Source: a virus
IMG/VR virus record: IMGVR_UViG_3300035682_000025
Span: 8,042 to 72,041 of that record
Length of the DNA stretch: 64,000 nt
Strand: one strand, 5' to 3'
The notes below the pieces were generated by a model. The model was not told the origin of the DNA. It searched no databases and saw nothing but the letters and a program-made list of their open reading frames with translations. Position 1 is the first letter of the stretch. Each line of letters begins with the position of its first letter. Shown piece by piece: positions 18,889 to 58,961 of the stretch. The position numbers and the translations under genes are program-made.

Positions 18889-18915
18889 AGTATAGTGATT
18901 CGGATTTATTGTCAA
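18889..18915 (-). promoter_or_regulatory. Conserved early promoter P1 (TTGACA-N15-TATACT with CGAATC spacer)
   Basis: Reverse complement reads TTGACAataaatccgaatcacTATACT. Confidence 0.55.
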
Positions 18916-19295
18916 GCGGCGATAAGCATCTCTACCGCTTCAAATGGAATATTGTCAGCTTTGTATTTCCACACAGAGACGAACCATGCCTCACCGTCCC
19001 ACAGGTAGAGGTACTGAGCTCCAGCATATTCAAAGCCTTCAGCGAAGTAATCTTCGACCGAAGCGAAAGTGACAGCCTTGTCCGAATGAACAGCGCTATT
19101 CCGCGACTCTTCGTAGTCCTTCGTCAGTGACGACAGATAACCACCAGTCGCAACAATCCAAGCATCCAATGAACTGTTGTAGGATTCCGTAAGCAACGCG
19201 CCCACCCCTTCGACATAACCATCATAATGAACATAGGAAGCAGTGACTTCGTTGGTCTCTTCGTCCCAAATACCGATCATAGCATGAGTACCCAT
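18912..19295 (-). CDS. Hypothetical protein
   Basis: 127 aa, ATG with RBS AAGGAG. Confidence 0.5.
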   Translation of the reverse strand: MGTHAMIGIWDEETNEVTASYVHYDGYVEGVGALLTESYNSSLDAWIVATGGYLSSLTKDYEESRNSAVHSDKAVTFASVEDYFAEGFEYAGAQYLYLWDGEAWFVSVWKYKADNIPFEAVEMLIAA

Positions 19296-19338
19296 TGCGA
19301 TTCTCCTTGTCTCGCGATTACTTCTTGACGGTATACCG

Positions 19339-19365
19339 ATTCGTCTCTCTTGTCAAGCAAGTATT
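19339..19365 (-). promoter_or_regulatory. Conserved early promoter P2
   Basis: Reverse complement reads TTGACAagagagacgaatcggTATACC. Confidence 0.5.
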
Positions 19366-19393
19366 CGTGTTGCTATAGCATTTATCATAAATA

Positions 19394-20770
19394 TCACGCG
19401 CCAGACATAATAATTTGTTTTGCTAGTTTTTCTTCTTCTAGCGTTAGATGTCTGATCTCTGTTTTTCCATCTTTTATTCCAAAAAGTGTTGCTGTTTCTC
19501 CGATACCAAGTAGTTTTCTTTCAATTCTGTATGCGCGTTCGGCTCGATTCCATAGAACTTCGTTCAGGGTAAAATCTGTCTGTGATACCACCTTTTTTAT
19601 GCGACGGTCTACGGAAATATCATTTGATACACCAAACTTCCAAATATTTGGATTTTCGATGGTGTTCCACATATAAACCACGTCAACGCGCCGCAAACCA
19701 ACAAGCATATGACGACAAATTTCATCCAACCAGTCGTTGATGCGCGCCGCATGATATGCACCACCCGCTGCTACAAAAAACTCTTTCCTAGTATTGTATT
19801 TTCTTGCTTCTTCTGCACAGTTTTCATATGACCAATGATTTGGATTTGCTGTAATTTTTGGAGACATGTGACCATGCGCTTCATCCAGCCAACCATTTCT
19901 CTTTGCGGCAGAGTAAGCACCACAATTGGATTTTCTAAAGTCTTCTCTCGATTCATATTGTCTCGATTGTTTTAGGCATAGCTCTTTTGTCCAATATCCA
20001 CTTGGTTTTTTTGAAGTATCATACAAATGGCGAATCAATTCAACCCAGTTGTTTCTTTTGATTGCGTTGTATAGATTCTTATTGCAATTTAGCATTTCGG
20101 AAAGGGTTTTATATTTAGAAACTTCCTGTTTGCATTTTTCATATGTCCAATACTCGTATACATCTTTCATACCATCAAATAGTTCTGTCCATCCACTGGT
20201 ATGAATTTTGTAATATGCTGATGGGCTAGACAATCTCATTTCTAGTTTTGATTTATACAACATGGCTTCTTTTTTGCAAGATTCGTATGTCCATTTTGTT
20301 CTTAGTTTGTGTCCATTTGTCATATGTGAACAAATTTCATCGAACCATCCTTCCTTTACGCTTTTTCTATGAAATGACGGTGACGCTTTTTTGAAGTCGC
20401 TTTTGGTTTGATATTTGAGTGCTTCTTGTTTGCAATCTTCATATGACAAATTAGGAGTGGTGTTCATGTGATTACAAATTTCTGGCAACCACCCATAAGA
20501 TTTTGCAAACCTATACACTTCCACATTTTCTTTCTCAAATTGCTTGTGTGTTTTGTACACGGAGGCAACTTCTTTACAATGTTCGTATGAAAACTTTTCT
20601 GTTTTCGGCTTCTCCATGTGCTTACATAATTCATCCAGCCATCCGTTTTTTCTGGCTGCTTCATATGCCCTACCAGAGCCTTTCTTGAAACTTACTCTAT
20701 TTGTATATTTTGATGCTTCATCAGCGACTTGCTCTTTTGTTCGCCAGTATCTATATTTTTTCGTATTCAT
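19394..20770 (-). CDS. Tandem-repeat protein with C-terminal T5orf172/GIY-YIG-like domain
   Basis: Seven imperfect 45-50 aa repeats (W..E.C..EA.KY....F.K....AY.AA.KNGWLDE.C.HM) are followed by VYMWNT..NPNIWKFGVSNDISVDRRIKK..., matching the T5orf172 / GIY-YIG-like fold. Confidence 0.6.
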   Translation of the reverse strand: MNTKKYRYWRTKEQVADEASKYTNRVSFKKGSGRAYEAARKNGWLDELCKHMEKPKTEKFSYEHCKEVASVYKTHKQFEKENVEVYRFAKSYGWLPEICNHMNTTPNLSYEDCKQEALKYQTKSDFKKASPSFHRKSVKEGWFDEICSHMTNGHKLRTKWTYESCKKEAMLYKSKLEMRLSSPSAYYKIHTSGWTELFDGMKDVYEYWTYEKCKQEVSKYKTLSEMLNCNKNLYNAIKRNNWVELIRHLYDTSKKPSGYWTKELCLKQSRQYESREDFRKSNCGAYSAAKRNGWLDEAHGHMSPKITANPNHWSYENCAEEARKYNTRKEFFVAAGGAYHAARINDWLDEICRHMLVGLRRVDVVYMWNTIENPNIWKFGVSNDISVDRRIKKVVSQTDFTLNEVLWNRAERAYRIERKLLGIGETATLFGIKDGKTEIRHLTLEEEKLAKQIIMSGA

Positions 20771-20797
20771 TTTTGCTCCAAGTTTTAGTTTTCTTTG

Positions 20798-21331
20798 TCA
20801 AGCAAGTATTTGCATGGTCATGAAAGAAGCGAAGTCGTCATAGCCATTTTTGAGGTTGAACACTGGTATTTTGTAGTGGGTTGCTATCCTGATTGCCTGG
20901 CCCGTACCACCACTTGCTTTGCCGTCTTTTGTCCAGCATAGAACAAAGTCAACTGGGCTTTTCAGATCAGACCCTAGAACTTGATATGAGTTTCTTGACA
21001 TAAATTTCCAACCAGCATCTGATAGTGCATCTGGCTTCGGATGATATTTTCGAACAAGGTCGGGATTGAATGGCGGAACGATGTAACTACCTTCGCCGTG
21101 AAGTTTGATCAGCGGTTCTATGTTCCGTTTATTGAACCCATCCCAAGGAAGGAATATTTGTCGATTGATAACTGCGCCCCACTCGAAGGCAGTATCAGCT
21201 CCATCAGCCCCACCGGAATTGCAAGTATAGCCAAGAGACGCTAATCTCTTGGCTATTGCTGTCATATGTAGACATACTTCTGGTGGTGTTCTTCTTGAAC
21301 CGATTCCGGCGTATGCCCTAACGCTTTGCAT
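20798..21331 (-). CDS. DprA/Smf-like Rossmann-fold (SLOG) protein
   Basis: AGIGSRRTP...SGGADGAD...GA and RNSYQVLG motifs match the DprA Rossmann domain. 177 aa standalone. Confidence 0.55.
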   Translation of the reverse strand: MQSVRAYAGIGSRRTPPEVCLHMTAIAKRLASLGYTCNSGGADGADTAFEWGAVINRQIFLPWDGFNKRNIEPLIKLHGEGSYIVPPFNPDLVRKYHPKPDALSDAGWKFMSRNSYQVLGSDLKSPVDFVLCWTKDGKASGGTGQAIRIATHYKIPVFNLKNGYDDFASFMTMQILA

Positions 21332-21566
21332 CTTCTAGCATAGCTAAACACATCCTGAAATTTCCAATCACATCATCAAGTTCATATGAAAGTTCTTCAT
21401 AAACCTTTCCGTCTTCATCGGAGACGACACCTTCAAGAAACCGTTCTACGAGATCCATATGCGAATAGATGATTGATGGTGTACCGGCATTCCCAAGGTA
21501 TAGGTTCAATCCAGAACCATCTACCATCAGAGAAATATCAATATTTGCTGAAATTGATTTGATCAT
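21318..21566 (-). CDS. Hypothetical protein
   Basis: 82 aa, overlaps neighbours by short coupling overlaps. Confidence 0.4.
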   Translation of the reverse strand: MIKSISANIDISLMVDGSGLNLYLGNAGTPSIIYSHMDLVERFLEGVVSDEDGKVYEELSYELDDVIGNFRMCLAMLEDAKR

Positions 21567-21817
21567 TTCATCCCCAGCGCGGCTTTATACATTTCCATGA
21601 TCGCTTCTTCCTCGGCAATCTCATCCGGCTTGCGCTTGCGCAGCGCAATCACTTTTTTCACGATCTTGCCATCATATCCGCGGCCCTTAAGTTCCGACAT
21701 GAGTTCTTTTTGATTCTCGGTCACATCTTTTTTCTCTGCTTCTAGCTGCTCGTAGCGTTCAATGAACTGGCGTAGTTCATCAGCAGTAACATTGTAGGCT
21801 TCATTCGTATCGCTCAT
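21563..21817 (-). CDS. gapR: GapR-like nucleoid-associated DNA-binding protein (DUF2312)
   Basis: LRQFIERYEQLEAEKKDV...KGRGYDGKIVKKVIALRKRKPDEIAEEEAIMEMYKAALGM matches the GapR/DUF2312 family. Start re-assigned to ATG 21817 with RBS AAGGAG. Confidence 0.75.
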   Translation of the reverse strand: MSDTNEAYNVTADELRQFIERYEQLEAEKKDVTENQKELMSELKGRGYDGKIVKKVIALRKRKPDEIAEEEAIMEMYKAALGMK

Positions 21818-21992
21818 TTTGTAGCTCCTTGAGTTTGATTGTAAGTTCAACAGCAGCGTCAAGTTCTTCTCTTGTTGAAGATAGAACCACGCAGCTCCAT
21901 AATTCTTGAAAGCCGAGACCACTGAAATAGGCATTTCCAATGGAGCTTCCAATGTAGTCGTAGTCCGAAATGTCAGGGTCGTTTTGGATCAT
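21801..21992 (-). CDS. Hypothetical protein
   Basis: 63 aa ORF with RBS GAGGAA. Its start is ATGA-coupled to the upstream small hydrophobic ORF. Confidence 0.35.
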   Translation of the reverse strand: MIQNDPDISDYDYIGSSIGNAYFSGLGFQELWSCVVLSSTREELDAAVELTIKLKELQNERYE

Positions 21993-22120
21993 TTATGTTC
22001 CTCTGCGATTCTGATTAGTTCTGCAATCAGCAGAAGCCCTGCTGATGTTGTTGCAACTGTAAGCCCAAAAGCTAATCCACCGAATGCGACAATCCTAAGC
22101 AGGCTTTTGGAATATGACAA
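21989..22120 (-). CDS. Possible small single-TM hydrophobic peptide (about 43 aa, TTG start; start uncertain)
   Basis: Open frame encoding ...RIVAFGGLAFGLTVATTSAGLLLIAELIRIAEEHK. Its stop overlaps the ATG of the next gene (ATGA). Not in the track because it is under 60 aa. Confidence 0.25.
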   Translation of the reverse strand: MSYSKSLLRIVAFGGLAFGLTVATTSAGLLLIAELIRIAEEHK

Positions 22121-22137
22121 ATACAGTTTGTGGTTTT

Positions 22138-22581
22138 TCATGGATGAAGCGAGAACTTTTTCAGAATAGTACTCGCAAATTTGTCATTTTCTTTGTTGGG
22201 CACAAATACATATGCGCAGGTATCCAGCGGAATGTGATGGACAACCTCGCCGTCAAGAATTGGATAGGTCGGATCATGAACCACATCAGCAATGTATTCC
22301 ATGCCCCGGAAAATGTCAACTGTTGCTTTGATGTCCGGCATTTTTCCAGCAAGAACAAGTACAGTGCCGAAGAATTGAGAAGTCGAGTTTTCCCATTCAG
22401 CAAAACCAGTCATGGTCGAGGTTTGCATCTCACTGTACATTGGCTTCGAGTTATACTCTTGAGCATAACCATGAAAATGTCCGACAAATGCGTTAGACGC
22501 GTGACTTGCCTGAGCCATTGCCTTTCCGGCATTAAGCGAGGCAAGGTCATTCCGAACGATGATATATAATACTGCTGTCAT
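22138..22581 (-). CDS. Peptidyl-tRNA hydrolase, PTH2 family-like
   Basis: N-terminal LYIIVRNDLASLNAGKAMAQASHAS resembles the PTH2 signature (hhVVRxDLxMxxGKxxAQxxHA). Confidence 0.5.
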   Translation of the reverse strand: MTAVLYIIVRNDLASLNAGKAMAQASHASNAFVGHFHGYAQEYNSKPMYSEMQTSTMTGFAEWENSTSQFFGTVLVLAGKMPDIKATVDIFRGMEYIADVVHDPTYPILDGEVVHHIPLDTCAYVFVPNKENDKFASTILKKFSLHP

Positions 22582-22603
22582 ATGGGTTCCCTTGTTTGAT
22601 TCG

Positions 22604-24284: not shown

Positions 24285-24291
24285 TAGTGCA

Positions 24292-24319
24292 GATTACGGC
24301 GATTCGGATGTATTGTCAA
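24292..24319 (-). promoter_or_regulatory. Conserved early promoter P3
   Basis: Reverse complement reads TTGACAatacatccgaatcgccgTAATCT. Confidence 0.55.
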
Positions 24320-24570: not shown

Positions 24571-24603
24571 AGTGATTCCTTTTTTGTTTCCGTCACAAGT
24601 ATG

Positions 24604-24632
24604 GTTATAGACCGATTCGACTCACTAGTCAA
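24604..24632 (-). promoter_or_regulatory. Conserved early promoter P4
   Basis: Reverse complement reads TTGACTagtgagtcgaatcggtcTATAAC. Confidence 0.55.
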
Positions 24633-25065: not shown

Positions 25066-25094
25066 GTTATATACCGAATCATCTTACTAGTCAA
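25066..25094 (-). promoter_or_regulatory. Conserved early promoter P5
   Basis: Reverse complement reads TTGACTagtaagatgattcggtaTATAAC. Confidence 0.55.
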
Positions 25095-25899: not shown

Positions 25900-25928
25900 A
25901 AGATAGACGATTCGTAATCAGATGTCAA
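25900..25928 (-). promoter_or_regulatory. Conserved early promoter P6
   Basis: Reverse complement reads TTGACAtctgattacgaatcgtcTATCTT. Confidence 0.5.
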
Positions 25929-29081: not shown

Positions 29082-29669
29082 TCAATTTCCGGTTATCAAC
29101 TCATATATTTCTTTCCAGTTTGTCACACGTCTCACATCTTCATGATGATCATCAATATTATAATGATGAGACATCAAAATGGGCTTCATACCATGACCCA
29201 AACCCATCAAGGCATTTTTCATCAAATCTTCAATCCAAAAGCACCCAGTTCCTTCATATTCTTTCAGTAGTTCTTTTTTGTTCGATGAACTGCCACATAG
29301 GGTCAAGCGCTCAAATGCTGTCTTACCAAAGAGGTTGTGAATGTTTTCCATTCTGGCATCATACATATCGCGTGTATTTGGAATTGCGCTGATGCAATGG
29401 AACACATAGCCATGATCTTCGTGAAGTTTGCGGATGTATTTGATGGCGTCTTTGAATGGAGGCAAACTCCGCATGGCAGCACTTTCATTGAAAGCAGCTG
29501 CCAGCTCATCGCCTTCTTCTTTCGAGATGCCATATTTGTCTTCGATGCTGTAGAATCCGTTTATGGTTTCTTTGTACCCCTTGGACACCATTGACATGTG
29601 GAAACCGTGTTCCCAATACCCAATAACCCCATCGAAATCTGTGACAATCACATTGTCATAAGCAATCAT
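29082..29669 (-). CDS. HAD-superfamily phosphatase, 5-prime(3-prime)-deoxyribonucleotidase-like
   Basis: N-terminal motif I VIVTDFDGVI (DxDGV), 195 aa. Confidence 0.55.
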   Translation of the reverse strand: MIAYDNVIVTDFDGVIGYWEHGFHMSMVSKGYKETINGFYSIEDKYGISKEEGDELAAAFNESAAMRSLPPFKDAIKYIRKLHEDHGYVFHCISAIPNTRDMYDARMENIHNLFGKTAFERLTLCGSSSNKKELLKEYEGTGCFWIEDLMKNALMGLGHGMKPILMSHHYNIDDHHEDVRRVTNWKEIYELITGN

Positions 29670-29670
29670 T
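29641..29670. repeat. 30-bp perfect direct repeat, copy 1 (first 10 codons of HAD gene 29082..29669)
   Basis: gtgacaatcacattgtcataagcaatcatt is identical to 30710-30739. Confidence 0.9.
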
Positions 29671-29686
29671 CAATATCTCCATAATG

Positions 29687-29765
29687 ATAAATAGAAGTGT
29701 CAATCGCGGTAGTGCAAATACCCACTGACTCTAGAACTTGTCACCTAAAAGAAGGAGCTCCAGCA
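29687..29765 (+). promoter_or_regulatory. HEG-associated late promoter plus conserved leader (copy B)
   Basis: GATAAATAGAAGTGTCAATCGCGG...CTCTAGAACT...AAGGAGCTCCAGCAATG. Conserved with copies A and C. Confidence 0.6.
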
Positions 29766-30710
29766 ATGGATATTTATCCGATTCTAGCATCAAAGCCTCA
29801 TAGCGAACATCATCTCAATAGATATATCAGGTTTATTGAGCAATGTCAACAGAATAACAAAAAGTCTTCCATAAAAACACATAGGCATCATATTTGCCCA
29901 AGAGCAAAAGATATGTTTCCAGAATATGAGTCGTTCGCCAAGAACAAATGGAATATGGCACGACTGACGCCACGACAGCATTTCATCGCCCACATAATGT
30001 TGTGGAAAGTATATCCAAACATTTCTTCGCAGTTCAATGCTGTTTGGCAAATGAAACACAGAAATAACGAACAAATGAATTCGCGACTATATGAAAGCGT
30101 TCTATTAGAGCATAGCAGAGTAACCTCAGCTAGACTAAAAAATACGGTTTCTGTATATGATGCAAATGGTTTATTTCATCGTATTCCAGTAAGTGAATAT
30201 GACGAAAGTAAGCATACACCCATTTCTGCAAATAGAGTAGTAGCAAAAATGGATAGCGGTGATTATGTTGTGGTTTCTGTAGATGAGTTTCGTTCTAGAA
30301 CTGATTTACACGGAACAACAAAAAATACGAAAGCATGGAATGATGGAAATACTGTTATGTATTCTTACAAAAATCCTGGCCCTGGTTTTACGAGGGGTCA
30401 TTTACCCCTCTCGGATGAGCAGAAGAAAATTCGTAATGAAAAGACTCGACAGACTATATCAAAAAGAACATCAGAAGAAAATAAACTAATCAGTATAAAG
30501 AGCTCTCAAGCTAAAAGAGAGTATTATGCCAATCTCTCACCAGAAGAAAGAAAAAAGCCGCAAGAGTTCAAAGACAAGTTGTCGGAAATCAGGAAAGAAA
30601 GCAATCCGGGTTTCAGAGCAACTCACGCCTGCCCTACTTGCGGCAAAGAAGGTCAGAAAGCTAATATTTCAAAGCATCACGGTCTCAATGGCGAAAAGTG
30701 TAGATGGTAG
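29766..30710 (+). CDS. HNH homing endonuclease (free-standing, Mob-like)
   Basis: HHICPRA ... NMARLTPRQHFIAHIMLW HNH motif. Lys/Glu-rich C-terminal DNA-binding tail with CPTCG. Antisense to the surrounding operon. ATG 29766 with RBS AAGGAG. Confidence 0.8.
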   Translation: MDIYPILASKPHSEHHLNRYIRFIEQCQQNNKKSSIKTHRHHICPRAKDMFPEYESFAKNKWNMARLTPRQHFIAHIMLWKVYPNISSQFNAVWQMKHRNNEQMNSRLYESVLLEHSRVTSARLKNTVSVYDANGLFHRIPVSEYDESKHTPISANRVVAKMDSGDYVVVSVDEFRSRTDLHGTTKNTKAWNDGNTVMYSYKNPGPGFTRGHLPLSDEQKKIRNEKTRQTISKRTSEENKLISIKSSQAKREYYANLSPEERKKPQEFKDKLSEIRKESNPGFRATHACPTCGKEGQKANISKHHGLNGEKCRW

Positions 30711-30739
30711 TGACAATCACATTGTCATAAGCAATCATT
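30710..30739. repeat. 30-bp perfect direct repeat, copy 2 (pseudo-start MIAYDNVIVT after NT5C stop)
   Basis: Identical to 29641-29670. On the minus strand it reads TAA-A-ATGATTGCTTATGACAATGTGATTGTCAC, then runs into the HNH gene 3-prime end. Confidence 0.9.
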
Positions 30740-31210
30740 TTACAATCCCGTAATCTTGAAGATTTCCCGCAGTGTGTCAGCGGTGTTCTTGTGAACAATT
30801 GCGATGCCGCCGAGCTCTTTCCATGCCTTGCAGTTTTTTTCGAAGTCATCAATCAGAATGTCGCCAGGTTCGTGCATGAACAATGCTTTGTTCACTCCGC
30901 CCATCATCGGAATGACAGTAATGTCTTTGGATAGATGTTCCCGCACCCAAGCCCGTTTTTGAATAGCAGCATTTTTGTAGTTCGACTTTGGGCAAGCAGA
31001 CAGAATGGTAACATCAAAATTGTCAACCAATATGTTGAACATCCCCTTTGCATCTTTCATAAGCGGAAGGTTAGCGTAGAAGTCGTGGTAGCCGTTGATC
31101 ATCTTCCACATCACATCGTCGTCAAGCGTTTGTGGGTCAACGCCGAATTTTTCAACAAAGTGGGTGTCGAAGTCCGCCATCACGCCATCGAGGTCTAGGT
31201 AGATACGCAT
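30740..31210 (-). CDS. 5-prime(3-prime)-deoxyribonucleotidase (NT5C family, HAD superfamily)
   Basis: N-terminal IYLDLDGVMADFD is the NT5C signature, 156 aa. Confidence 0.65.
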   Translation of the reverse strand: MRIYLDLDGVMADFDTHFVEKFGVDPQTLDDDVMWKMINGYHDFYANLPLMKDAKGMFNILVDNFDVTILSACPKSNYKNAAIQKRAWVREHLSKDITVIPMMGGVNKALFMHEPGDILIDDFEKNCKAWKELGGIAIVHKNTADTLREIFKITGL

Positions 31211-31241: not shown

Positions 31242-31270
31242 CATCATAGGGCATATGTAGCTATGTGTCA
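31242..31270 (-). promoter_or_regulatory. Early promoter P7 (TTGACA-N17-TATGAT)
   Basis: Reverse complement reads TTGACAcatagctacatatgcccTATGATgattctgtaa. Shares the GATTCTGTAA downstream box with P11/P12. Confidence 0.5.
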
Positions 31271-31443
31271 AGCGCTATTCGTCGTCTTTCCCATCATATG
31301 ATGACATTTTTTCATTATTCTTTTGCCGCTGCTTCATTTTTCGCTCTTTCAGCCTGTCTTGTTTATTACGAATTTCATCGTCATCATTGATCCATTCGCC
31401 TTCGTATTGGTCTTCGCGAAAGTGACGAAACGACTTAGCCATT

Positions 31444-35626: not shown

Positions 35627-35655
35627 CAATTTATCCCATTTGTACGAGATTGTCA
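35627..35655 (-). promoter_or_regulatory. Early promoter P8 (TTGACA-N17-TAAATT)
   Basis: Reverse complement reads TTGACAatctcgtacaaatgggaTAAATT. Confidence 0.45.
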
Positions 35656-36213
35656 AGCAGTATTTCCACCGTGAAATCGGTATTTGCACATGTAGTAGGC
35701 GTCAAACATATCGCTTACTGGGTTCCATGCCTTGGCTACCTCTTGTCCGATAAGATGAAAGAGGTTCAGTTGTGTCTCTTCTATGAAGGCTTCCCAAACT
35801 TTTTCCTTGTTGGCATTGCCCTTTCCACAAGCAAACTTCTTTACAGAGGTAGGTGCGTATACTTCAAAGTCTATGCCAGCTTGCCACATTTTATGTTTGA
35901 GCAATCCGGTATTCTCTCCAATTTCAAAAAGACGGCTTCCGGTGCTGCCATATGAGTAACCTTCAAGGCCTACTACCGCTGCTTTATGTGAATTGAGAAT
36001 ATTTAGAGCCCAGTTAGATAGATTGTCAAACCGCTGTTGTTGCGATTCAAACTCTTCGTAAAGAGATCCGCGAACCTGGTCAGTATGTATAAGAAGCTTG
36101 TTCTTTTGTGTGAGATAGTAGAATGTGCAGTTGTTTATTGACCACTCTTCTCCGTCATGGATACAAACCGCCGGCGAAGTCATTGACCAATCAATTCCTG
36201 CAATAATAGTCAT
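35653..36213 (-). CDS. RuvC/YqgF-like RNase-H-fold nuclease (putative junction resolvase)
   Basis: N-terminal IIAGIDWS (Asp in the first beta strand), GLEGYSYG, and C-terminal SDMFDAYY acidic motif. Confidence 0.4.
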   Translation of the reverse strand: MTIIAGIDWSMTSPAVCIHDGEEWSINNCTFYYLTQKNKLLIHTDQVRGSLYEEFESQQQRFDNLSNWALNILNSHKAAVVGLEGYSYGSTGSRLFEIGENTGLLKHKMWQAGIDFEVYAPTSVKKFACGKGNANKEKVWEAFIEETQLNLFHLIGQEVAKAWNPVSDMFDAYYMCKYRFHGGNTA

Positions 36214-38105: not shown

Positions 38106-38139
38106 TTCGATTCTCTCGTTTGTGTTTGTGCTTCTAACA

Positions 38140-38448
38140 CTACTCCGAATTTTCATCATTGTCAACCGGATTCGCATAGTAAAGATAGCTTCGGTGTGTT
38201 CTATTTTTCCATGCGAGCGACTCTGACATAAGCTTGTCCAAATGTTCGGTCGAGTGTTCAACTAGGTCGCGCTGCATTGCATCAGCATACCAATCATGTT
38301 CTCGGTCATACGCTGCTGCAACTCCATCAGCTGCTTCATCTAGTGTATTGTCGCTATGACCACAATCCCCTAGAATACGGCAGAAGTGCTGCTCTACTGT
38401 AATTTCATCTGGGTAGTAGGCAATGTCCCAACCCTTGCAGTTACACAT
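38140..38448 (-). CDS. Hypothetical acidic protein
   Basis: 102 aa. Confidence 0.4.
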   Translation of the reverse strand: MCNCKGWDIAYYPDEITVEQHFCRILGDCGHSDNTLDEAADGVAAAYDREHDWYADAMQRDLVEHSTEHLDKLMSESLAWKNRTHRSYLYYANPVDNDENSE

Positions 38449-39963: not shown

Positions 39964-40400
39964 CTATTATCTCCATAATAAGTGTGTCCTGTCCAGTTGC
40001 AAAGAACTTTGCCGATTGCATCATAGACAGGACTCACAGCACAGTCGGTAGTTGGCTCATACATGGCCGCATAGTCATACAAAGCAGGAAACAAGTAAAC
40101 ACAAAGAATATGGATATTCTTAGGCATTTCACTAACCTGTTCTTTTTCAGTCCAACGGATCAATTGTTCAAGCTGTTCTTTCCGTTCTTGATCCCGAATA
40201 ATAGACTTCATTGCTCGAGCAGTAAGCTGAGAATGTTCTTTCATTTCTCGAGCAATACTGGCTTCTACACCAGAAAGAGACTTTTTCAGGTGGTCGATGA
40301 TCGGTGTGAGATCAAGCGCATTCTTTTTGTCATGTTCTTCTTGTGCTTGTTTTGCATATTTTGCAAGCAGCCGAGCTTTGGTTTCGGCAATATCAGTCAT
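39960..40400 (-). CDS. Hypothetical protein
   Basis: 146 aa, promoter P9 upstream. Confidence 0.45.
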   Translation of the reverse strand: MTDIAETKARLLAKYAKQAQEEHDKKNALDLTPIIDHLKKSLSGVEASIAREMKEHSQLTARAMKSIIRDQERKEQLEQLIRWTEKEQVSEMPKNIHILCVYLFPALYDYAAMYEPTTDCAVSPVYDAIGKVLCNWTGHTYYGDNR

Positions 40401-40431
40401 GTCATTTTTCCCACATTTGTATCACAGAACC

Positions 40432-40460
40432 ACCATAGGCGATTCTCTAGTATTTGTCAA
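40432..40460 (-). promoter_or_regulatory. Early promoter P9 (TTGACA-N17-TATGGT)
   Basis: Reverse complement reads TTGACAaatactagagaatcgccTATGGT. Confidence 0.5.
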
Positions 40461-40496
40461 CCGCTCTTCGTTTGTCTCCAAGAAACATAATCCGCA

Positions 40497-40700
40497 TCAT
40501 TTCCCTTCACATCGAACAAATGTAAGAGTTTCTGGGTCAATTCGTGGGGCCATCATTTGAAAATATGTATCTTCTCCATCGACCCAATATGCAACACCAT
40601 CCAAACATACTGTAATCATATCACTGGTTTGATCGGTATTGTTTTTTTCTTCACATCCTGCAAGAGATAGAAGTACAGCGGCAATAACAAGATATTTCAT
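40497..40700 (-). CDS. Small lipoprotein
   Basis: Signal peptide with lipobox LLSLAGC. 67 aa. ATGA-coupled to the upstream ORF. Confidence 0.55.
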   Translation of the reverse strand: MKYLVIAAVLLSLAGCEEKNNTDQTSDMITVCLDGVAYWVDGEDTYFQMMAPRIDPETLTFVRCEGK

Positions 40701-40876
40701 TGAGCTCGCTCCATTTGGATTTCTTTGATGACTTCAATCATCTGATTTTCATCAGCTTCAGCAAATTCATCTACATAAGCTTGAATTTCCCAAGCAAGTT
40801 CTTGGGCATCCCAATTCCATACTGGTTGCCCATTATCAGCAGTAGTCTGCATCAGTTCAAGCAATTGCTCTTTCAT
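40697..40876 (-). CDS. Small acidic cytoplasmic protein (59 aa), not in track
   Basis: MKEQLLELMQTTADNGQPVWNWDAQELAWEIQAYVDEFAEADENQMIEVIKEIQMERAQ. ATGA overlaps at both ends link it to the two lipoprotein genes. Confidence 0.45.
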   Translation of the reverse strand: MKEQLLELMQTTADNGQPVWNWDAQELAWEIQAYVDEFAEADENQMIEVIKEIQMERAQ

Positions 40877-41229
40877 TTCATTTCCTCAGTAGCATCAGGA
40901 ATAGTATATTCTACGCCGATTCTACGGCTAATGTCAATCACATACTGCTCACGAGATTCCCTGACTGCTTCGCGAATGCCTTCACTGACTTCATTAGCAA
41001 GCTCTCGCGGAACTAATGGGCGATTGCTATCAAAGCATCTACGGCCGAGGCATGGCTCATCGAACCAAACAGGATACCCATTCTTCAAGATAGTTACACC
41101 ATCTTGACTGAGTGTGTACCCCTTCTCTTCCATGTAAGGGTTTAGCTCAGGAGGCCAGACTGCTGGACTTGGCTCGATATTACACGCAGCAACGAAAAGG
41201 ATGGTGCATAGAAGGAGTGATTTTCTCAT
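40873..41229 (-). CDS. Lipoprotein
   Basis: Signal peptide with lipobox LFVAAC. 118 aa. Confidence 0.55.
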   Translation of the reverse strand: MRKSLLLCTILFVAACNIEPSPAVWPPELNPYMEEKGYTLSQDGVTILKNGYPVWFDEPCLGRRCFDSNRPLVPRELANEVSEGIREAVRESREQYVIDISRRIGVEYTIPDATEEMK

Positions 41230-41435
41230 TCCGCATCGCCTCCCGTTAGCACATTACTGGGGTGAATGGACCGCTCCGATTCATCATCCCATCGGACACG
41301 AAGAATGGCTTCTAAACCATTGCTGGAAAATCCGATTACATGACCAAACATGGGTCGTGCTTCTAGTCCTCTATATATACCACCATGAGAACCATCTTTC
41401 TCGCGAACAACAGTTCCAATCTTGTATTTCCACAT
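41226..41435 (-). CDS. Hypothetical protein
   Basis: 69 aa, ATGA-coupled. Confidence 0.4.
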   Translation of the reverse strand: MWKYKIGTVVREKDGSHGGIYRGLEARPMFGHVIGFSSNGLEAILRVRWDDESERSIHPSNVLTGGDAE

Positions 41436-41440
41436 TTTGC

Positions 41441-41698
41441 TTATTTCCTATGTTCAAGCGCCGCAGAGACGCGGGCAAAGTGATCTGCTTCCGCAGCACG
41501 GAATTTTGTATTGTAGAATTCCCGAGCAGATTCGATTGTATCTTGGTTCAGCGCCTGCATAGCAATGCTATTTGTGATTGATCGCATGGTCGAATTTGCA
41601 TCATAGAGATTTGCATACAGTTGCAAATCTCCACCACTGATGAAATTCGCAAGCTTCGTGCGAAGAACATAAGCCCACATAAGAACAGGGTCTTTCAT
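41441..41698 (-). CDS. Hypothetical protein
   Basis: 85 aa. Confidence 0.4.
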   Translation of the reverse strand: MKDPVLMWAYVLRTKLANFISGGDLQLYANLYDANSTMRSITNSIAMQALNQDTIESAREFYNTKFRAAEADHFARVSAALEHRK

Positions 41699-41699
41699 T

Positions 41700-41968: not shown

Positions 41969-41997
41969 AATCTACACCGATTCGATGCTCGTGTCAA
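41969..41997 (-). promoter_or_regulatory. Conserved early promoter P10
   Basis: Reverse complement reads TTGACAcgagcatcgaatcggtgTAGATT. Confidence 0.6.
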
Positions 41998-43560: not shown

Positions 43561-43612
43561 TCCTTCTTTACCTTACAGAATCAACATACATCGATTCGCA
43601 TTCTATGTCAAC
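43561..43612. repeat. 52-bp duplicated promoter/5-prime-UTR cassette, copy 1
   Basis: Identical to 44038-44089 apart from 2 mismatches. Confidence 0.85.
43583..43611 (-). promoter_or_regulatory. Early promoter P11 (part of 52-bp duplicated promoter/leader, copy 1)
   Basis: Reverse complement reads TTGACAtagaatgcgaatcgatgTATGTTgattctgtaaggtaaagaagga. Confidence 0.55.
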
Positions 43613-44037: not shown

Positions 44038-44089
44038 TCCTTCTTTACCTTACAGAATCAACATACATCGATTCGAATGCTATGTCAAC
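44038..44089. repeat. 52-bp duplicated promoter/5-prime-UTR cassette, copy 2
   Basis: tccttctttaccttacagaatcaacatacatcgattcgaatgctatgtcaac versus copy 1 ...cgcattctatg... Confidence 0.85.
44060..44088 (-). promoter_or_regulatory. Early promoter P12 (copy 2 of duplicated cassette)
   Basis: Reverse complement reads TTGACAtagcattcgaatcgatgTATGTT. Confidence 0.55.
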
Positions 44090-45231: not shown

Positions 45232-45260
45232 ACACTACACCGATTCGGTTTGATTGTCAA
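45232..45260 (-). promoter_or_regulatory. Conserved early promoter P13
   Basis: Reverse complement reads TTGACAatcaaaccgaatcggtgTAGTGTcaat. Confidence 0.6.
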
Positions 45261-45549: not shown

Positions 45550-45578
45550 GTTATAGACGATTCGATGGGAGCAGTCAA
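45550..45578 (-). promoter_or_regulatory. Conserved early promoter P14
   Basis: Reverse complement reads TTGACTgctcccatcgaatcgtcTATAAC. Confidence 0.55.
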
Positions 45579-45990: not shown

Positions 45991-46019
45991 AATCTACACC
46001 AATTCGGTCTTCATGTCAA
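45991..46019 (-). promoter_or_regulatory. Conserved early promoter P15
   Basis: Reverse complement reads TTGACAtgaagaccgaattggtgTAGATT. Confidence 0.55.
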
Positions 46020-47064: not shown

Positions 47065-47093
47065 AATCTACACCGATTCGGGCTTTATGTCAA
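47065..47093 (-). promoter_or_regulatory. Conserved early promoter P16
   Basis: Reverse complement reads TTGACAtaaagcccgaatcggtgTAGATT. Confidence 0.6.
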
Positions 47094-47156
47094 TAGAAAA
47101 AAGGCGGAAGATTTCTCTCCCGCCCATAATTTTTTCGGTAGTAGTTCCAATAATGA

Positions 47157-49309: not shown

Positions 49310-49338
49310 AATCTATACCGATTCGGGCATCATGTCAA
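49310..49338 (-). promoter_or_regulatory. Conserved early promoter P17
   Basis: Reverse complement reads TTGACAtgatgcccgaatcggtaTAGATT. Confidence 0.6.
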
Positions 49339-50904: not shown

Positions 50905-50933
50905 ACACTACACCGATTCGGAAACATTGTCAA
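50905..50933 (-). promoter_or_regulatory. Conserved early promoter P18
   Basis: Reverse complement reads TTGACAatgtttccgaatcggtgTAGTGTcaat. Confidence 0.6.
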
Positions 50934-54823: not shown

Positions 54824-54839
54824 GCAATTCCTTTCATTA

Positions 54840-55151: not shown

Positions 55152-55176
55152 GTGAATGTCTCCTTATCACAGTTAC

Positions 55177-55205
55177 AACATACAGTGATTCGGGTCCATT
55201 GTCAA
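55177..55205 (-). promoter_or_regulatory. Conserved early promoter P19
   Basis: Reverse complement reads TTGACAatggacccgaatcactgTATGTT. Confidence 0.5.
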
Positions 55206-55209
55206 GCGG

Positions 55210-55446: not shown

Positions 55447-55471
55447 GTGTTAGCTCCTTTTACTGTGATTG

Positions 55472-55915
55472 TTATTGATATTTTTCGCTTTGCTTTTTGC
55501 TTGCGAGATTTCTTTCAGCAAGGTCTTTCGTAAAGACCTCTAAATTTTTACCTCTGCGATCTACTTTATAACACAATTGCCCGCCAAAGTAAACCAAAAA
55601 CTCTTGTGTAGCTGGACATTCTAGAACAATCGTGTAAGCAGTCGTCATCGATGCTCCACCCATTCCACCATGGCCAAGTGCAGTACTTCCCCATGTTTGG
55701 GGAAACATTGCATAGACCCAGAAGTCTCGGCCACTCCACGGTCGCCGAGATTTGGGTATCTTCTTCTCTCGTGCAGCAATACGCTCTTCTGTTGTCTTTG
55801 CTTTCTGGGAAGCTTCTAGATCAATGCTGTCATATTCAATATCACTGACACCTTCGTACTGAGCATGAGCTAGCGCTTCATGCAGGTCACGCAATGGATT
55901 GTCAATGCAGTTCAT
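55472..55915 (-). CDS. Hypothetical protein
   Basis: 147 aa. Confidence 0.45.
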   Translation of the reverse strand: MNCIDNPLRDLHEALAHAQYEGVSDIEYDSIDLEASQKAKTTEERIAAREKKIPKSRRPWSGRDFWVYAMFPQTWGSTALGHGGMGGASMTTAYTIVLECPATQEFLVYFGGQLCYKVDRRGKNLEVFTKDLAERNLASKKQSEKYQ

Positions 55916-56223
55916 TCGTCTTCATCTTCATCTTCCATTCGCTCTTGGATGATTTCATCAAAGTATTCAAAGTCAAACGGACCGGAAAGCACTTGCCCGA
56001 GTTTTTCGTAAAGAGTGGTGACAACATCTTCCGGCAATTCGATCACTCCAAGCGTTTCATCAGAGAAGTTGAAGTGGCCTTCGCTGTGTTTTCCAAGAAG
56101 CTCATCCCAATAAAGATACCCTGTATATTCTTTATATTTCTCTACTTCTTCATCTGTCAGAAAGAACAGACCTTCAATCGCGCCCATGCGCCCATAGTCT
56201 TCGTAGTATTTGTATAGTTTCAT
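55912..56223 (-). CDS. Hypothetical acidic protein
   Basis: 103 aa, ATGA-coupled. Confidence 0.4.
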   Translation of the reverse strand: MKLYKYYEDYGRMGAIEGLFFLTDEEVEKYKEYTGYLYWDELLGKHSEGHFNFSDETLGVIELPEDVVTTLYEKLGQVLSGPFDFEYFDEIIQERMEDEDEDE

Positions 56224-56483
56224 TCTTCATCATCCTCCACAATTGTAAATGATCTCATTACGCGTTCCTGCACCATCATGCTATTATCGCAATTCGGGCA
56301 GCAGTATTCTTTTGGTCCATCATCACCCCAATAGGTGATATGATATTGTGCATAATCGCAGTCACTCAAATCCTGCTCATGCGAACATTTTGGGCAAGTA
56401 ATCATTGTACTGTCCCATAGAGCATGGATACGCTCTATACCTTCAAGTGTCATCATTTTAGATAGACTCCCTTTTGGCCCCAA
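56220..56483 (-). CDS. Small zinc-ribbon protein
   Basis: CPKC...CPNC paired CxxC. Confidence 0.4.
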   Translation of the reverse strand: MGPKGSLSKMMTLEGIERIHALWDSTMITCPKCSHEQDLSDCDYAQYHITYWGDDGPKEYCCPNCDNSMMVQERVMRSFTIVEDDEE

Positions 56484-56598
56484 ATAACGGTGTACTCAGC
56501 CTTACGCACTTCCACCCAATCGTCTTTGTGTTCGGCCTCATAATATACTTTTGTGTCCGGTGGGAATTGTTGCAATAAAGCGATAAGGTGCTCAACTT

Positions 56599-56784
56599 TC
56601 ATTCTGCGATCTTTTTCATATATGAATTGATTATTTCCATTGATAATTTATAAGATTGAACTGCAACTCGCAACTCGAACTCGCTTTCTGTAATATCAGA
56701 TGTATTTACTGCTAAAAAGAAATCGCGGTAATCCGAATGATTTGAGATTTCACTGTTATCGTAGCCTTCAACTAATTGTTTCAT
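56599..56784 (-). CDS. Hypothetical protein
   Basis: 61 aa. An additional coupled sub-60-aa ORF lies at about 56458-56602. Confidence 0.35.
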   Translation of the reverse strand: MKQLVEGYDNSEISNHSDYRDFFLAVNTSDITESEFELRVAVQSYKLSMEIINSYMKKIAE

Positions 56785-56999
56785 TCTACACAGCTTCCAC
56801 TTACATATTGTTTACCAGATTCGACGCAGGCATTGAATTGTCGTTCTGTTTTAGCCATATCACTACTAATAAGCTTTCCGATTCCTAAAACAATAAGGAT
56901 AACGACGATGAAGAATAAGATAGCATCTAGATGCCAGCGGAGAATATCAGATAGAGAGTTCATGCTTTGGTTTCCATAATTTTGCGAATTTGAGTACAT
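56781..56999 (-). CDS. Small membrane protein
   Basis: 72 aa with a central hydrophobic helix. Confidence 0.35.
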   Translation of the reverse strand: MYSNSQNYGNQSMNSLSDILRWHLDAILFFIVVILIVLGIGKLISSDMAKTERQFNACVESGKQYVSGSCVE

Positions 57000-57300
57000 T
57001 CGGGGTTTCTAGTCTAGGACAGACGACAGCACAGGCTTTTCGTCCTTCAAGTGTAGTATTTTCGTGCCCAAGATAAACATCAGGTAGTGCTGCAATCTTG
57101 TCAAACTCTTTCTGGTTCACTCGCACCACACACTTGCGAAATGAGTCTTTAAGCCATGTCATATATTCTGGGTAGAACGGTAGACCGTATGATGGCCCTA
57201 CATATGTAAACTCTAAGTGAGCTCCTAACATGCTGTGTGCCACAAGAGTCGGTGTCATATAGTCAGGGAATTCGTCAAGTACTGCTATGTATAGTTTCAT
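56947..57300 (-). CDS. Hypothetical protein (weak PTH2-like N-terminal pattern)
   Basis: 117 aa. KLYIAVLDEF...TLVAHSMLGAH loosely resembles the PTH2 signature. Confidence 0.4.
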   Translation of the reverse strand: MKLYIAVLDEFPDYMTPTLVAHSMLGAHLEFTYVGPSYGLPFYPEYMTWLKDSFRKCVVRVNQKEFDKIAALPDVYLGHENTTLEGRKACAVVCPRLETPNVLKFAKLWKPKHELSI

Positions 57301-57467
57301 TGGTGTTTCTTTCCGCAGATGGGGCAGCTTCCTTGCTCGACAAAACTAACAGTCGTGAAGTTTGATGAGGTTCCACTGTAGTAACCTCTATCCCAAGAAA
57401 GGGTCTTGTCGTATAGTGCAGCGCAGCCGCTGCATCTAATAAGATTTGAAGCATTGGCAATGTTCAT
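57297..57467 (-). CDS. Small zinc-ribbon protein (56 aa), not in track
   Basis: MNIANASNLIRCSGC...CPICGKKHQ. ATGA-coupled at both ends. It replaces the overlapping track ORF 57275..57460 in another frame. Confidence 0.4.
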   Translation of the reverse strand: MNIANASNLIRCSGCAALYDKTLSWDRGYYSGTSSNFTTVSFVEQGSCPICGKKHQ

Positions 57468-57709
57468 TTTTCCAAATACTTTTCGCCATTGTTTTTCTGA
57501 TATTCTTTGAGTCCAATATTTAGCATACGCTCAATATGCACCAAATCACAGTTTAGCGCCGGATCATGCAATTCAACTAGGTTGTAGCCATGTCTATGAT
57601 TGCACCTACCATAATATAATACATGAAACTCATTATTAGCACCATGAGGTCTAATTGTGTATTTCATTTCACATGTACAGTTGTTGAATATATCTAAGTC
57701 ACTCATCAA
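57464..57709 (-). CDS. Hypothetical protein
   Basis: 81 aa. Confidence 0.4.
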   Translation of the reverse strand: MMSDLDIFNNCTCEMKYTIRPHGANNEFHVLYYGRCNHRHGYNLVELHDPALNCDLVHIERMLNIGLKEYQKNNGEKYLEK

Positions 57710-58299
57710 ATCATTCCAATACTTTGAAAAAGTTGCTTATCAATCGCCCATCTGTTTTCGCGATAGTTCTTCGCTTCCAGAGCAAGGTCTTCGATATTGA
57801 CCGGCGTGTAGTTTCGCATTTCTACACAGACAGAAGTGTATGGACCGATCTTCGGAGAACCCATTGTGTGGCTGTGGCCATGGACCTGAAATAGAGGGCA
57901 TTCAATACTTGTGCCCCGAAACAGCGCCATTAGATTCAATGGAACATGATGAAAAATAAGACCATGTTCAGTGAACATACGCCAGAACAGAGTTTTCTTG
58001 AAGAATGCTCCGTTTGCGAGAAATTGAATATCGTCATGGTTGCCGACAATTAGTCGCTTTGAACCATTGAACTTTGGCCAATCTCTCTTGAATGTTTCCT
58101 TGTCACCAAAGAATGTATCACCCAAAGTATAGACGATATCGCCAGGCTTCACAACAGAATTCCATCGATCAAGCAAGCACTCGTTCATTTGCTCTACAGT
58201 ATCAAAATCGCGAGTTCGGTTGCCTTGATAGTCAATAAAGCTCAGGATGTTGGCATGATTGTAGTGTAGGTCTGAAATGACCCAAATATCTTTAGCCAT
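57706..58299 (-). CDS. Calcineurin-like metallophosphoesterase (Ser/Thr phosphatase / diadenosine tetraphosphatase family)
   Basis: ISDLHYNH, GDxxxG, GNHD, HGHSH motifs. Confidence 0.75.
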   Translation of the reverse strand: MAKDIWVISDLHYNHANILSFIDYQGNRTRDFDTVEQMNECLLDRWNSVVKPGDIVYTLGDTFFGDKETFKRDWPKFNGSKRLIVGNHDDIQFLANGAFFKKTLFWRMFTEHGLIFHHVPLNLMALFRGTSIECPLFQVHGHSHTMGSPKIGPYTSVCVEMRNYTPVNIEDLALEAKNYRENRWAIDKQLFQSIGMI

Positions 58300-58316
58300 T
58301 TTAAATTTTCCTTATA

Positions 58317-58634
58317 TTAGGCTGCAGCCTTGACGAATTCTCGCAAGAGTTGGCCAGAATAGATGCCGATGCGGCTCTTGCCTGACTTATCTTTGACGCG
58401 CCAGTAGTTGATTTGTTTCGGCGAAAGATAACCAGCCTTCTGGTAGAACTTCGCCATTGAGGTTCCCATTTTTGCATGGCATGGACGGAAGCCTCGACCG
58501 TTTTTGTATTTAGTATCTTCGCTGTCGAGCTCATCAGCTGTCTGCAACTCAGCAAGACGAAGAAGCGCACGACCAACAGCCTTGTCGTTGGTCTCGAGCA
58601 GAGTTGCGATTTTTTCTTTGGTCCATTCAGTCAT
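58317..58634 (-). CDS. Hypothetical protein
   Basis: 105 aa. Preferred over the overlapping 58301..58576 frame. Confidence 0.4.
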   Translation of the reverse strand: MTEWTKEKIATLLETNDKAVGRALLRLAELQTADELDSEDTKYKNGRGFRPCHAKMGTSMAKFYQKAGYLSPKQINYWRVKDKSGKSRIGIYSGQLLREFVKAAA

Positions 58635-58905
58635 TGAAGATCACCACTTTCAGATTGGTCATACCGGGAGTAACAGAAACGAAGTTGATTGAGATTAGGT
58701 CCCCCTCGTTATCAAGAGTATCTTCCATTTGCACAAACACAACACAATTTCCAGTTTTTTCAGAAATGATTGTGAACCCCATGTCATCAGCATCATCATA
58801 GATGCGACCAAGTTTCAAATCTTTCAGTTCCGAAGCTTCAGCGGAAAACACGCCATTCTTGAATGCAAACTTGGAAGAACTAATCGGCGCAGGTTTCAGA
58901 AGCAT
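58627..58905 (-). CDS. Hypothetical protein
   Basis: 92 aa, after promoter P20. Confidence 0.4.
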   Translation of the reverse strand: MLLKPAPISSSKFAFKNGVFSAEASELKDLKLGRIYDDADDMGFTIISEKTGNCVVFVQMEDTLDNEGDLISINFVSVTPGMTNLKVVIFND

Positions 58906-58932
58906 GTTTCCCTCTTTTCTGACTACTCTTAG

Positions 58933-58961
58933 ACACTACACCGATTCGATATGTTTGTCAA
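58933..58961 (-). promoter_or_regulatory. Conserved early promoter P20
   Basis: Reverse complement reads TTGACAaacatatcgaatcggtgTAGTGT. Confidence 0.6.

Follow-up and report, generated by a model that had tools for sequence, protein, structure and literature searches.

T4-type phages (T4, RB69, RB49, 44RR, and Aeh1) place many copies of an early promoter ahead of small early open reading frames (ORFs), and these promoters are read by the unmodified host σ70 polymerase and have a consensus that extends beyond the -35 and -10 elements, including a GT-rich stretch 5' of -12 (PMC1524935, PMC2988021). Near-perfect TTGACA-N17-TATAAT is found in RB49 and phi1 as well. Repeated composites of early promoter, Shine-Dalgarno sequence, and ATG, clustered in a hyperplastic ORFan region, have been described as PeSL cassettes (PMC2839356, PMC4122927). 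Repeated early promoters followed by a conserved initial transcribed region (ATCATAGAGAG and TATAAGG, respectively) are also found in the Sinorhizobium phage phiM12 and the Caulobacter phage Cr30, which belong to the same virus superfamily. Here, we describe a family of 23 predicted promoters in a 64,000-nucleotide stretch of viral DNA (positions 8,042 to 72,041 of IMG/VR record IMGVR_UViG_3300035682_000025), referred to as the window, and a conserved 7-bp box in their spacers that contains the sequence GANTC.

GANTC is the target of the alphaproteobacterial adenine methyltransferase CcrM. The σ70 cofactor GcrA prefers GANTC bearing N6-methyladenine (m6A) in the context YGAKTCK, with the consensus TGATTCG, and the sites of its regulon are “narrowly centered around -20” or located at +2..+30 (PMC4647560). 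Upstream GcrA sites are centred at -20 ± 1 or -30 ± 2, within the spacer, the promoter used for cryo-electron microscopy (cryo-EM) having Gm6AATC at -22..-18 (PMC9976885), and the DNA-binding domain of GcrA contacts all seven base pairs (PMC5887438). Phage-encoded GcrA homologs are known in phiCbK, and our full-text search of the literature on phages with GcrA or CcrM found no report linking phage early promoters to either protein.

Promoter family of the leftward block

The pattern TTGACA-N17-TANNNT occurs 24 times in the window against an expectation of 1.07 (largest count in shuffled sequence, 4), with 23 of these matches falling on the minus strand. A position weight matrix, built from sites that included two members with the -10 hexamer TATAAC contributed by a repeat finder (25094 and 45578; members are named by their higher coordinate), gives 23 minus-strand matches above a score of 10 and none on the plus strand, with ~0.1 in block shuffles. 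The family spans 17858-61795, and 2-3 further copies lie past the right end of the window in locus L123, which comes from the same phage (L-numbered loci are stretches of DNA that we compared with the window). The preliminary description of this DNA, which annotated 20 near-identical promoters between 18889 and 58961, was thus correct about the existence of a family but gave too small a number and too short an extent, and “near-identical” was too strong a term, the copies being 60-78% identical over 40-54 nt with a single pair (43611/44088) at 96%. A search for the promoter consensus across 50,697 phage records returned chance-level matches only.

The two hexamers are separated by exactly 17 bp in all 23 copies. 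The -35 element is TTGACA in 19 copies and TTGACT in 4, and the -10 element has the form TAnnn(T/C), in which T-12 and A-11 are invariant and position -7 is T in 20 copies and C in 3. Column counts extend the consensus upstream to a G at -37 (18/23) followed by C/G, after which come TTGAC (23/23), A (19), and seven unconstrained bases; from the box to the -10 element the columns read C15 G16 A19 A19 T17 C16 G17 G17 T16 G11 and then T23 A23 nnn T20. The -10 element is followed by G/C A w w c T and then by G17 T18 A14 A16, which falls on the predicted positions +1..+4. The first base of this GTAA, 7 nt beyond the -10 element, is the probable transcription start, and a leader of ~18-35 nt would then precede the ribosome-binding site and ATG. 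The exact 10-mer CGAATCGGTG occurs five times, every time within a promoter.

We examined the position of the sites with respect to a simple gene model of the leftward block (16.3-62 kb; 106 genes, 87% coding). The -10 element falls in non-coding DNA for 21 of the 23 copies, although such DNA makes up only 13% of the block, so the motif is not equally enriched inside coding regions, an outcome that had been raised as a possible objection to the family. A start codon comes next, 24-41 nt past the -10 element, and the operon structure can indeed be read from the promoters, as had been proposed, with transcription units of 1-12 genes; seven promoters lie within 44-51 kb and serve 1-6 small ORFs each. 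In 14 cases an upstream ORF runs into the promoter, and 12 of these ORFs stop at the TGA of the -35 TTGACA, where one-third would be expected (for example at 58958-58961, 45257-45260, 41994-41997, and 24316-24319). In these 12 promoters, the spacer and the -10 element therefore stay free of coding sequence.

Strand, intergenic position, 17-bp spacing, the T-12/A-11 pair, and start-codon distance all uphold the earlier proposal of σ70-type promoters for the leftward block. From these features it is very probable that the 23 sites are promoters for the host RNA polymerase with its primary σ70-type sigma factor and that they start short leftward operons in the presumed early/replication region. 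The alternative that the sites are no promoters but an intergenic signal of another kind, for packaging, replication, or a nuclease, for instance, is highly improbable given the perfect -35 element, the fixed spacing, the invariant T-12 and A-11, the orientation of all copies on one strand together with the genes, and the tight constraint on start-codon distance; related T4-like phages, moreover, have a like architecture with other spacers.

Several elements known from other promoters were considered and rejected as features of the family. For an UP element, the A+T fraction at -40..-60 is 0.597, close to the mean of the block (0.566; standard error 0.021), the copies have 0.27-0.33 pairwise identity there, and the region is often coding. 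The extended -10 element suggested in the preliminary description is likewise lacking, the canonical TG at -15/-14 being present in 0 of 23 copies and a TG one base closer (-14/-13) in 9. The analogy with T4 early promoters, also drawn there, holds for the presence of extra consensus positions, which lie here at -37, -22..-13, and +1..+4, but is loose because the canonical extended -10 and the A/T-rich UP element are absent. The family differs from the T4-type promoters further in having TTGACA rather than GTTTAC as its -35 element, poor -10 hexamers, and a CGAATC box at -22..-17 that has no counterpart in the published logos.

No stem-loop was detected upstream of the -35 element when -60..-30 was folded (mean z -0.22, energy equal to controls), and a terminator-like hairpin lies just upstream of only 1 of the 23 promoters (47102-47125, at copy 47065..47093). 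The family was therefore not assigned to the PeSL cassettes, from which it also differs in that its conservation is position-specific and not tract-like; indeed, there is often no room for a stem-loop of that type because the upstream gene stops inside the -35 element. It does share with them the repeated unit of early promoter, Shine-Dalgarno sequence, and ATG and its clustering in a hyperplastic region. A hairpin or cruciform around the -10 element was also rejected as a general explanation. Pairing is possible between GAATC at -21..-17 and GATTC at -6..-2 and between TTGACA and TGTCAA, but the mean z is -0.75 for -36..-1 and -0.04 for -30..+25, and the second arm is present in a subset of copies only. 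TGTCAA or GTCAA directly follows the -10 element in six promoters, and four others have a direct copy of TTGAC there (TAGATTGAC).

A conserved box in the spacer

Averaged over all pairs of the 23 copies, identity is 0.95 in the -35 element, drops to 0.28 in the following seven bases (N7, -29..-23), where 0.255 is expected at random, and rises again to 0.59 at -22..-17 and 0.49 at -16..-13; it is 0.61 in the -10 element, 0.52 at +1..+4, and 0.27 beyond -47. The 5' half of the spacer thus has random-level similarity, and the 3' half carries (C/A)GAATC(G/A) together with GGTG. These values, and the retention of the box in relatives, support the earlier view that the spacer holds information beyond the -35 and -10 elements. 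The core CGAATC noted at that time is confirmed as conserved, whereas the reported N6-7 ahead of it resolves into a 1-nt shift of the box (N7 in 16 copies, N8 in 4) within a spacer of constant length. That the core, GAATC or GATTC, is an instance of the methylation site GANTC had not been recognized.

To compare promoters across related phages, we used locus L159, which was fetched through an unrelated gene and not by the promoter pattern, and which is 72-82% identical at the nucleotide level to window positions 9.8-32 kb. It supplies six orthologous promoters, and three more come from L145, L128, and L138, giving nine pairs in all from relatives at this same level of identity. Between orthologs, identity is 1.00 in the -35 element, 0.43 in N7, and 0.91 in the -10 element, and GANTC is kept in 6/6 of the L159 pairs. 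In one of the pairs (25928), the box has slid by 1 nt with the 17-bp spacer unchanged, and in another the whole 7-mer is inverted, reading TGATTCG in the window (25094) and CGAATCA in L159. Two window copies (17886 and 25094) have a flipped centre, GATTC in place of GAATC. Random-level N7 between conserved blocks, combined with conservation between orthologs, argues for position-specific selection on old duplicates rather than recent copying or conversion, and these comparisons indicate that the spacer box is under selection.

The competing view is that the spacer is free of function and owes its similarity to copying or gene conversion among PeSL-type promoter cassettes, with the homology serving at most as a recombination handle. 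Such an origin would suit the sub-families with common flanks and leaders (the 43611/44088 pair at 96% and the TAGTGTCAAT group), the conservation of leader plus promoter beside unrelated ORFs in L002 and L139, and the arbitrary-looking, lineage-specific spacers found elsewhere. It would also suit the absence from relatives L137 and L138 of 39964-41699 (1.7 kb; five or six ORFs) and ~44.6-50.5 kb (~6 kb; ~six promoter-ORF cassettes), and by this comparison the promoter-dense stretch is a hyperplastic region. However, an unconstrained N7 between conserved blocks is not a product of conversion tracts, the box persists in orthologs despite N7 divergence, shift, and inversion, and the breakpoints of both indels lie at gene boundaries, outside the promoters. 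The stem-loop that defines PeSL cassettes is missing as well, and we regard this origin as distinctly improbable.

That the box can be inverted and can slide favors a short site recognized as duplex over strand-specific polymerase contacts. If CGAATC plus GGTG were instead contacted directly by the holoenzyme, through σ region 3, the β′ zipper, or DNA shape, methylation and GcrA would be irrelevant. There is precedent for such contacts in the consensus regions that T4 “uber” early promoters possess beyond UP, -35, TGn, and -10 (PMC2988021) and in the GT-rich stretch 5' of -12 in T4-type promoters (PMC1524935), which GGTG at -16..-13 recalls; conservation here does reach past the 7-mer, other lineages conserve different spacers, and some members presumably work without GANTC. 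Inversion of the 7-mer, the flipped centre, and the 1-nt slide would nevertheless be unexpected for strand-specific contacts, and neither TGn at -15/-14 nor an UP element is found. Moreover, the permitted flanks (5' C/A, 3' G/A) equal the degeneracy of the GcrA motif exactly. Direct contact therefore seems to us rather unlikely, although it deserves serious consideration.

Correspondence with GcrA sites

The 7-bp box (C/A)GAATC(G/A) at -22..-16 reads YGAKTCK on the other strand. GANTC is present in the spacer of 20 of the 23 copies, at -21..-17 in 16 and at -20..-16 in 4, which puts the centre of the site at -19 or -18, counted from the predicted start. We extended this comparison to all distinct promoters with GANTC in the box zone from the window and every related locus, 89 in total, and found that 87 of the 89 boxes fit YGAKTCK in one orientation, whereas the share is 36-39% when every NGANTCN site of these genomes is counted. 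The most frequent 7-mers are CGAATCG (50 boxes, 27 of which were found by a scan that required CGAATCG), AGAATCA (16), CGAATCA (11), and AGAATCG (5), with CGATTCG (3), TGATTCG (2), CGATTCC (1), and AGAGTCG (1) making up the remainder. In loci fetched via the GapR gene, which contain 47 promoter-like 29-mers (TTGACN-N17-TAnnnT/C), 12 of 13 GANTC sites start at the same offset. The promoter boxes account for all of the excess behind a twofold enrichment of GANTC in non-coding DNA.

These promoters thus resemble the Caulobacter GcrA/CcrM promoters (PMC4647560, PMC5887438, PMC9976885) in having a YGAKTCK-type GANTC near -20 within the -35/-10 spacer, and the PcsM cryo-EM scaffold in having GAATC on the non-template strand, either orientation being tolerated. 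In contrast to the Caulobacter cases, which concern chromosomal cell-cycle genes, they are phage promoters with a -35 element of consensus strength and have the site in 20 of 23 copies; the gap from GANTC to the -10 element is 4 bp here, compared with 5 bp in PcsM.

Given this match of motif and position, we tentatively favor, over the other explanations considered, a mechanism in which the box is a GANTC methylated by a CcrM-type enzyme and read by GcrA to assist initiation, although we would not yet call it probable. The box would then not be a σ contact. It would be methylated by a CcrM-type adenine methyltransferase, and GcrA, moving with the polymerase, would bind m6A-GANTC near -20 and promote formation of the open complex, an aid that could compensate for the poor -10 hexamers (TAGATT, TAGTGT, TATGTT, and TATAAC). 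Methylated phage DNA would thereby be favored for transcription upon injection.

Such a mechanism calls for an alphaproteobacterial host, which had also been suggested earlier and is plausible from a gene for a GapR-like (DsbA-like) DNA-binding protein of 84 aa at 21566..21817 on the minus strand (Pfam GapR_DNA-bd, 1.7e-28). Homologs of this protein number 149 among the 50,697 phage records, and at least 122 of them come from phages of Alphaproteobacteria, with hosts in Rhodobacter, Rhizobium, Ruegeria, Agrobacterium, Caulobacter, Brevundimonas, Ochrobactrum, Sinorhizobium, Paracoccus, and Sulfitobacter; the best matches are to Paracoccus phages (66-73% identity). The three window promoters with C at -7 (TATAAC) also agree in this position with the Caulobacter RpoD -10 consensus GCtANAWC (PMC8144410). 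A scan of bacterial genomes for a 26-nt promoter pattern gave 3 matches against ~4 expected by chance and is therefore uninformative on the host.

Several observations weigh against a role for GcrA. GANTC is missing from three or four of the copies (46019, 38165, 31271, and 35656), an orthologous promoter in L138 reads CGAATAG, and the closest relatives by RnlA mostly have CAAATAGTT at the box position. GGTG at -16..-13 is conserved as well and is not explained by GcrA. The 87 of 89 fits do not represent 89 independent trials because the copies share ancestry, and genome-wide GANTC is only mildly depleted (observed/expected 0.70-0.83). Genes for a DNA methyltransferase or for GcrA are absent from the ~84 kb of readable sequence of this phage (more than 100 kb of its genome lies outside) and from the loci of relatives, and neither a CcrM-like protein (DPPY motif) nor a GcrA motif was detected in the T4-like loci searched, namely the window, its extensions L123 and L125, the loci of ~190 relatives, and XG4. 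Methylation of the virion DNA is for this reason an assumption. Among other T4-like phages, Cr30 infects Caulobacter and yet has a T4-like -35 (TTTACTTTT...TATAGT) with no GANTC box, and phiM12, from Sinorhizobium, has TTGAC(A/G)-N17-TAATTT, also with no GANTC box. Conserved spacers without GANTC occur in further lineages (aCCAAGACACTTTGCT, TAAGGCGCCTTA, cTTCCGTTCCG, and TGATGATTCT...AGAATCATCA in XG4), so lineage-specific conservation of the spacer can arise without GcrA. Finally, the GapR-based host call is an indirect indicator because the coliphage T4 has a distant relative of this protein, DsbA, with a fold of this family (PMC7824862).

Lineage-specific spacers would also be expected if the box had co-evolved with a phage protein, that is, if it were an operator for a DNA-binding protein, made by the phage or injected with its DNA, that jointly shuts off or boosts the early promoters at the early-to-middle switch. 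The short near-palindrome CCGA-A-TCGG lies in the gap that separates the -35 from the -10 element, where a bound protein would block polymerase, the box is conserved in orthologs, and the block has ~80 small ORFs without known function that might encode such a protein. Pfam scans nonetheless offered no candidate, with no AsiA, MotA, or helix-turn-helix family among 91 small ORFs; the 10 largest ORFs of the block likewise gave no AsiA or MotA, leaving the phage factor invoked in the preliminary description without a match. A site of 7-9 bp is short for a dimeric repressor, and the identical box recurs in L001 and L139, which belong to phages with no detectable protein similarity to the window in the stretches available. 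We give an operator only a small chance.

Repeated early promoters are well known in T4-type phages, and the family as such is ordinary; what is new is the selected extra piece, which corresponds to a methylation site of the host in the sequence context and at the position that a σ70 cofactor of the host recognizes. If GcrA does act here, a class of phage promoters would for the first time be seen to use the CcrM/GcrA system of Alphaproteobacteria, early genes could be shut off by a simple epigenetic route, and the box would serve as a sequence mark by which uncultured phages could be linked to hosts among the Alphaproteobacteria. A bolder proposal, which we consider improbable, is that the clade of this phage has made the epigenetic reader of the host cell cycle a part of its own early programme and so obtains an early shut-off coupled to replication. 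Injected, fully methylated DNA would be transcribed by GcrA-σ70 polymerase from ~20 early promoters, and newly made phage DNA, un- or hemimethylated where CcrM is limiting, would lose the help of GcrA. Early genes would then be silenced without a phage anti-sigma factor, and S-phase host cells would be preferred. Whichever explanation applies, the 23 sites provide an operon map for the early genes, which number ~100 and are unannotated, and a small natural collection of promoter variants with which the effects of spacer sequence on initiation can be studied.

Individual promoters and other features of the phage

All of the promoters are on the minus strand. The leftmost, 17858..17886 (TTGACT-N17-TAGAGT; predicted +1 at 17851), has the flipped box CGATTCG, which its L159 ortholog keeps. 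At 18887..18915 (TTGACA-N17-TACTGT, box CGAATCA), the plus strand also matches, as TTGACA-N17-TATTGT; the site 18884-18915 is symmetric, both strands fitting TTGACA-N17-TAnnnT, because its -10 region ends in TGTCAA. Box CGAATCG is found at both 19328..19356 (TTGACA-N17-TACCGT) and 24291..24319 (TTGACA-N17-TAATCT). The two following copies share TTGACT-N17-TATAAC, with 24604..24632 carrying two boxes, TGAGTCG and CGAATCG, that have their end bases in common, and 25066..25094 carrying TGATTCG, the forward GcrA consensus, of which the L159 box is the reverse complement. At 25900..25928 (TTGACA-N17-TATCTT), CGAATCG is shifted by 1 nt. The copy at 31243..31271 (TTGACA-N17-TATGAT) has no spacer box but has GATTC at -6..-2, and 35628..35656 (TTGACA-N17-TAAATT, no GANTC) is a weak member with a score of 11.6. 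A degenerate box, AAATTCGG, is present at 38137..38165 (TTGACA-N17-TAGTGT), which overlaps the end of the upstream ORF.

Further to the right, 40432..40460 (TTGACA-N17-TATGGT) has AGAATCG with a 1-nt shift, and 41969..41997 (TTGACA-N17-TAGATT, CGAATCG plus GTG) has orthologs in L137 and L138. The copy at 43583..43611 (TTGACA-N17-TATGTT, CGAATCG, with GATTC at -6..-2) serves the operon of RNA ligase 1, and 44060..44088 is 96% identical to it over 52 nt. The top score belongs to 45232..45260, which reads GGTTGACA-N7-CGAATCGGTG-TAGTGTCAA. It is followed by 45550..45578 (TTGACT-N17-TATAAC, CGAATCG with a 1-nt shift) and by three copies with TTGACA-N17-TAGATT: 45991..46019, in which the box is mutated to CGAATTG and GANTC is lost, 47065..47093, the copy with the upstream hairpin, and 49310..49338, with CGAATCG. 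CGAATCG plus GTG occurs with TTGACA-N17-TAGTGT at both 50905..50933 and 58933..58961, the latter having an upstream 392-aa gene that ends at the TGA of TTGACA. Between these two, 55177..55205 (TTGACA-N17-TATGTT, CGAATCA) lies upstream of the DNA ligase operon and has its ortholog in L145, and the rightmost copy, 61767..61795 (TTGACA-N17-TAAAGT, AGAATCG with a 1-nt shift), has its ortholog in L128.

Lineages with conserved spacers of their own are represented by L155-L157 (Pseudoalteromonas phage XG4), L108/L111/L112, L033, and L014/L026/L030. Several of these spacers are inverted repeats, as in XG4 (TGATGATTCT...TAGAAT...AGAATCATCA), the L108 type (CTTTGCT...AGCAAAG), and L033 (TAAGGCGCCTTA), and hairpin spacers show compensatory changes between orthologous promoters of L014, L017, L026, and L030. 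No TTGACA-N17-TAnnnT was found in 21 kb around RnlA of L115/L204 (IMGVR_UViG_3300047548_001236; RnlA 80%, GapR 63%), which may use a different type of early promoter; L204 is a 282-kb contig that carries a GapR-like gene as well. L152/L153 (JBBAQX010000002.1; 160-kb contig of a 'Lysinibacter' metagenome-assembled genome, GC 55%) has TTGACA-N7-CGAATCGGTG-TAGATT twice and, with another core, once more, in each case ahead of small tandem ORFs, and looks like a phage genome mis-binned into an actinobacterial assembly.

By its gene content, the source of the window is an uncultured phage of the T4 superfamily. The large terminase (TerL; 4558-6156) has 56-57% identity to TerL of the Sinorhizobium phages phiN3 and phiM12 and matches ~2,600 T4-like records, and it is adjoined by genes for the T4 portal, sheath, tube, gp13, gp15, and prohead protease. 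The same phage (99.8-100% identity) is present in several metagenomes (loci L121-L126), and no isolate gave a close DNA-level match to the window. The leftward block carries genes for RNA ligases 1 and 2, for DNA ligase, and for a Dda-like helicase, RNase H, PhoH, and RuvC, along with ~90 small ORFs that belong to no known family. Rfam and tRNA scans of the window returned no matches. A fatty-acid desaturase gene (2488-3243, plus strand) lies in the structural module between neck and tail genes. The 458-aa ORF at 19394-20770 (minus strand) has no Pfam match and contains internal DNA repeats with periods of ~150 and ~300 nt (families D5 and D6), which makes its product a repeat protein. The block appears to contain anti-defence genes, since one small ORF within 16.3-41.7 kb matches the anti-CBASS protein Acb1 (5.6e-13), and the 392-aa protein at 58958-60136 (minus strand) is listed by JGI as PF26128 (Gad2, anti-Gabija), although this family is missing from our own Pfam results.

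Inside the minus-strand block, a lone plus-strand ORF (29697-30710) has on either side a direct repeat of 45 nt (84% identical; 29641-29685 and 30710-30754) that contains the palindrome TGACAATCACATTGTCA. The ORF has only a weak Pfam match, to nSTAND3, and may with its repeats be an inserted cassette, or the repeats may be paired terminators. The T4 late promoter TATAAATA is not enriched in the window (2 occurrences, 2.0 expected). ATAAATAG, in contrast, occurs 10 times against 2.1 expected, mostly directly upstream of plus-strand structural genes (plus strand, 10331, 12918, 15405, 29687, and 62183; minus strand, 15485, 33155, 35019, 36234, and 62272), and we consider it a candidate variant of the late promoter. 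A repeat of promoter plus leader (29682-29712 and 62178-62208), 31 nt long and 87% identical, precedes two plus-strand genes.

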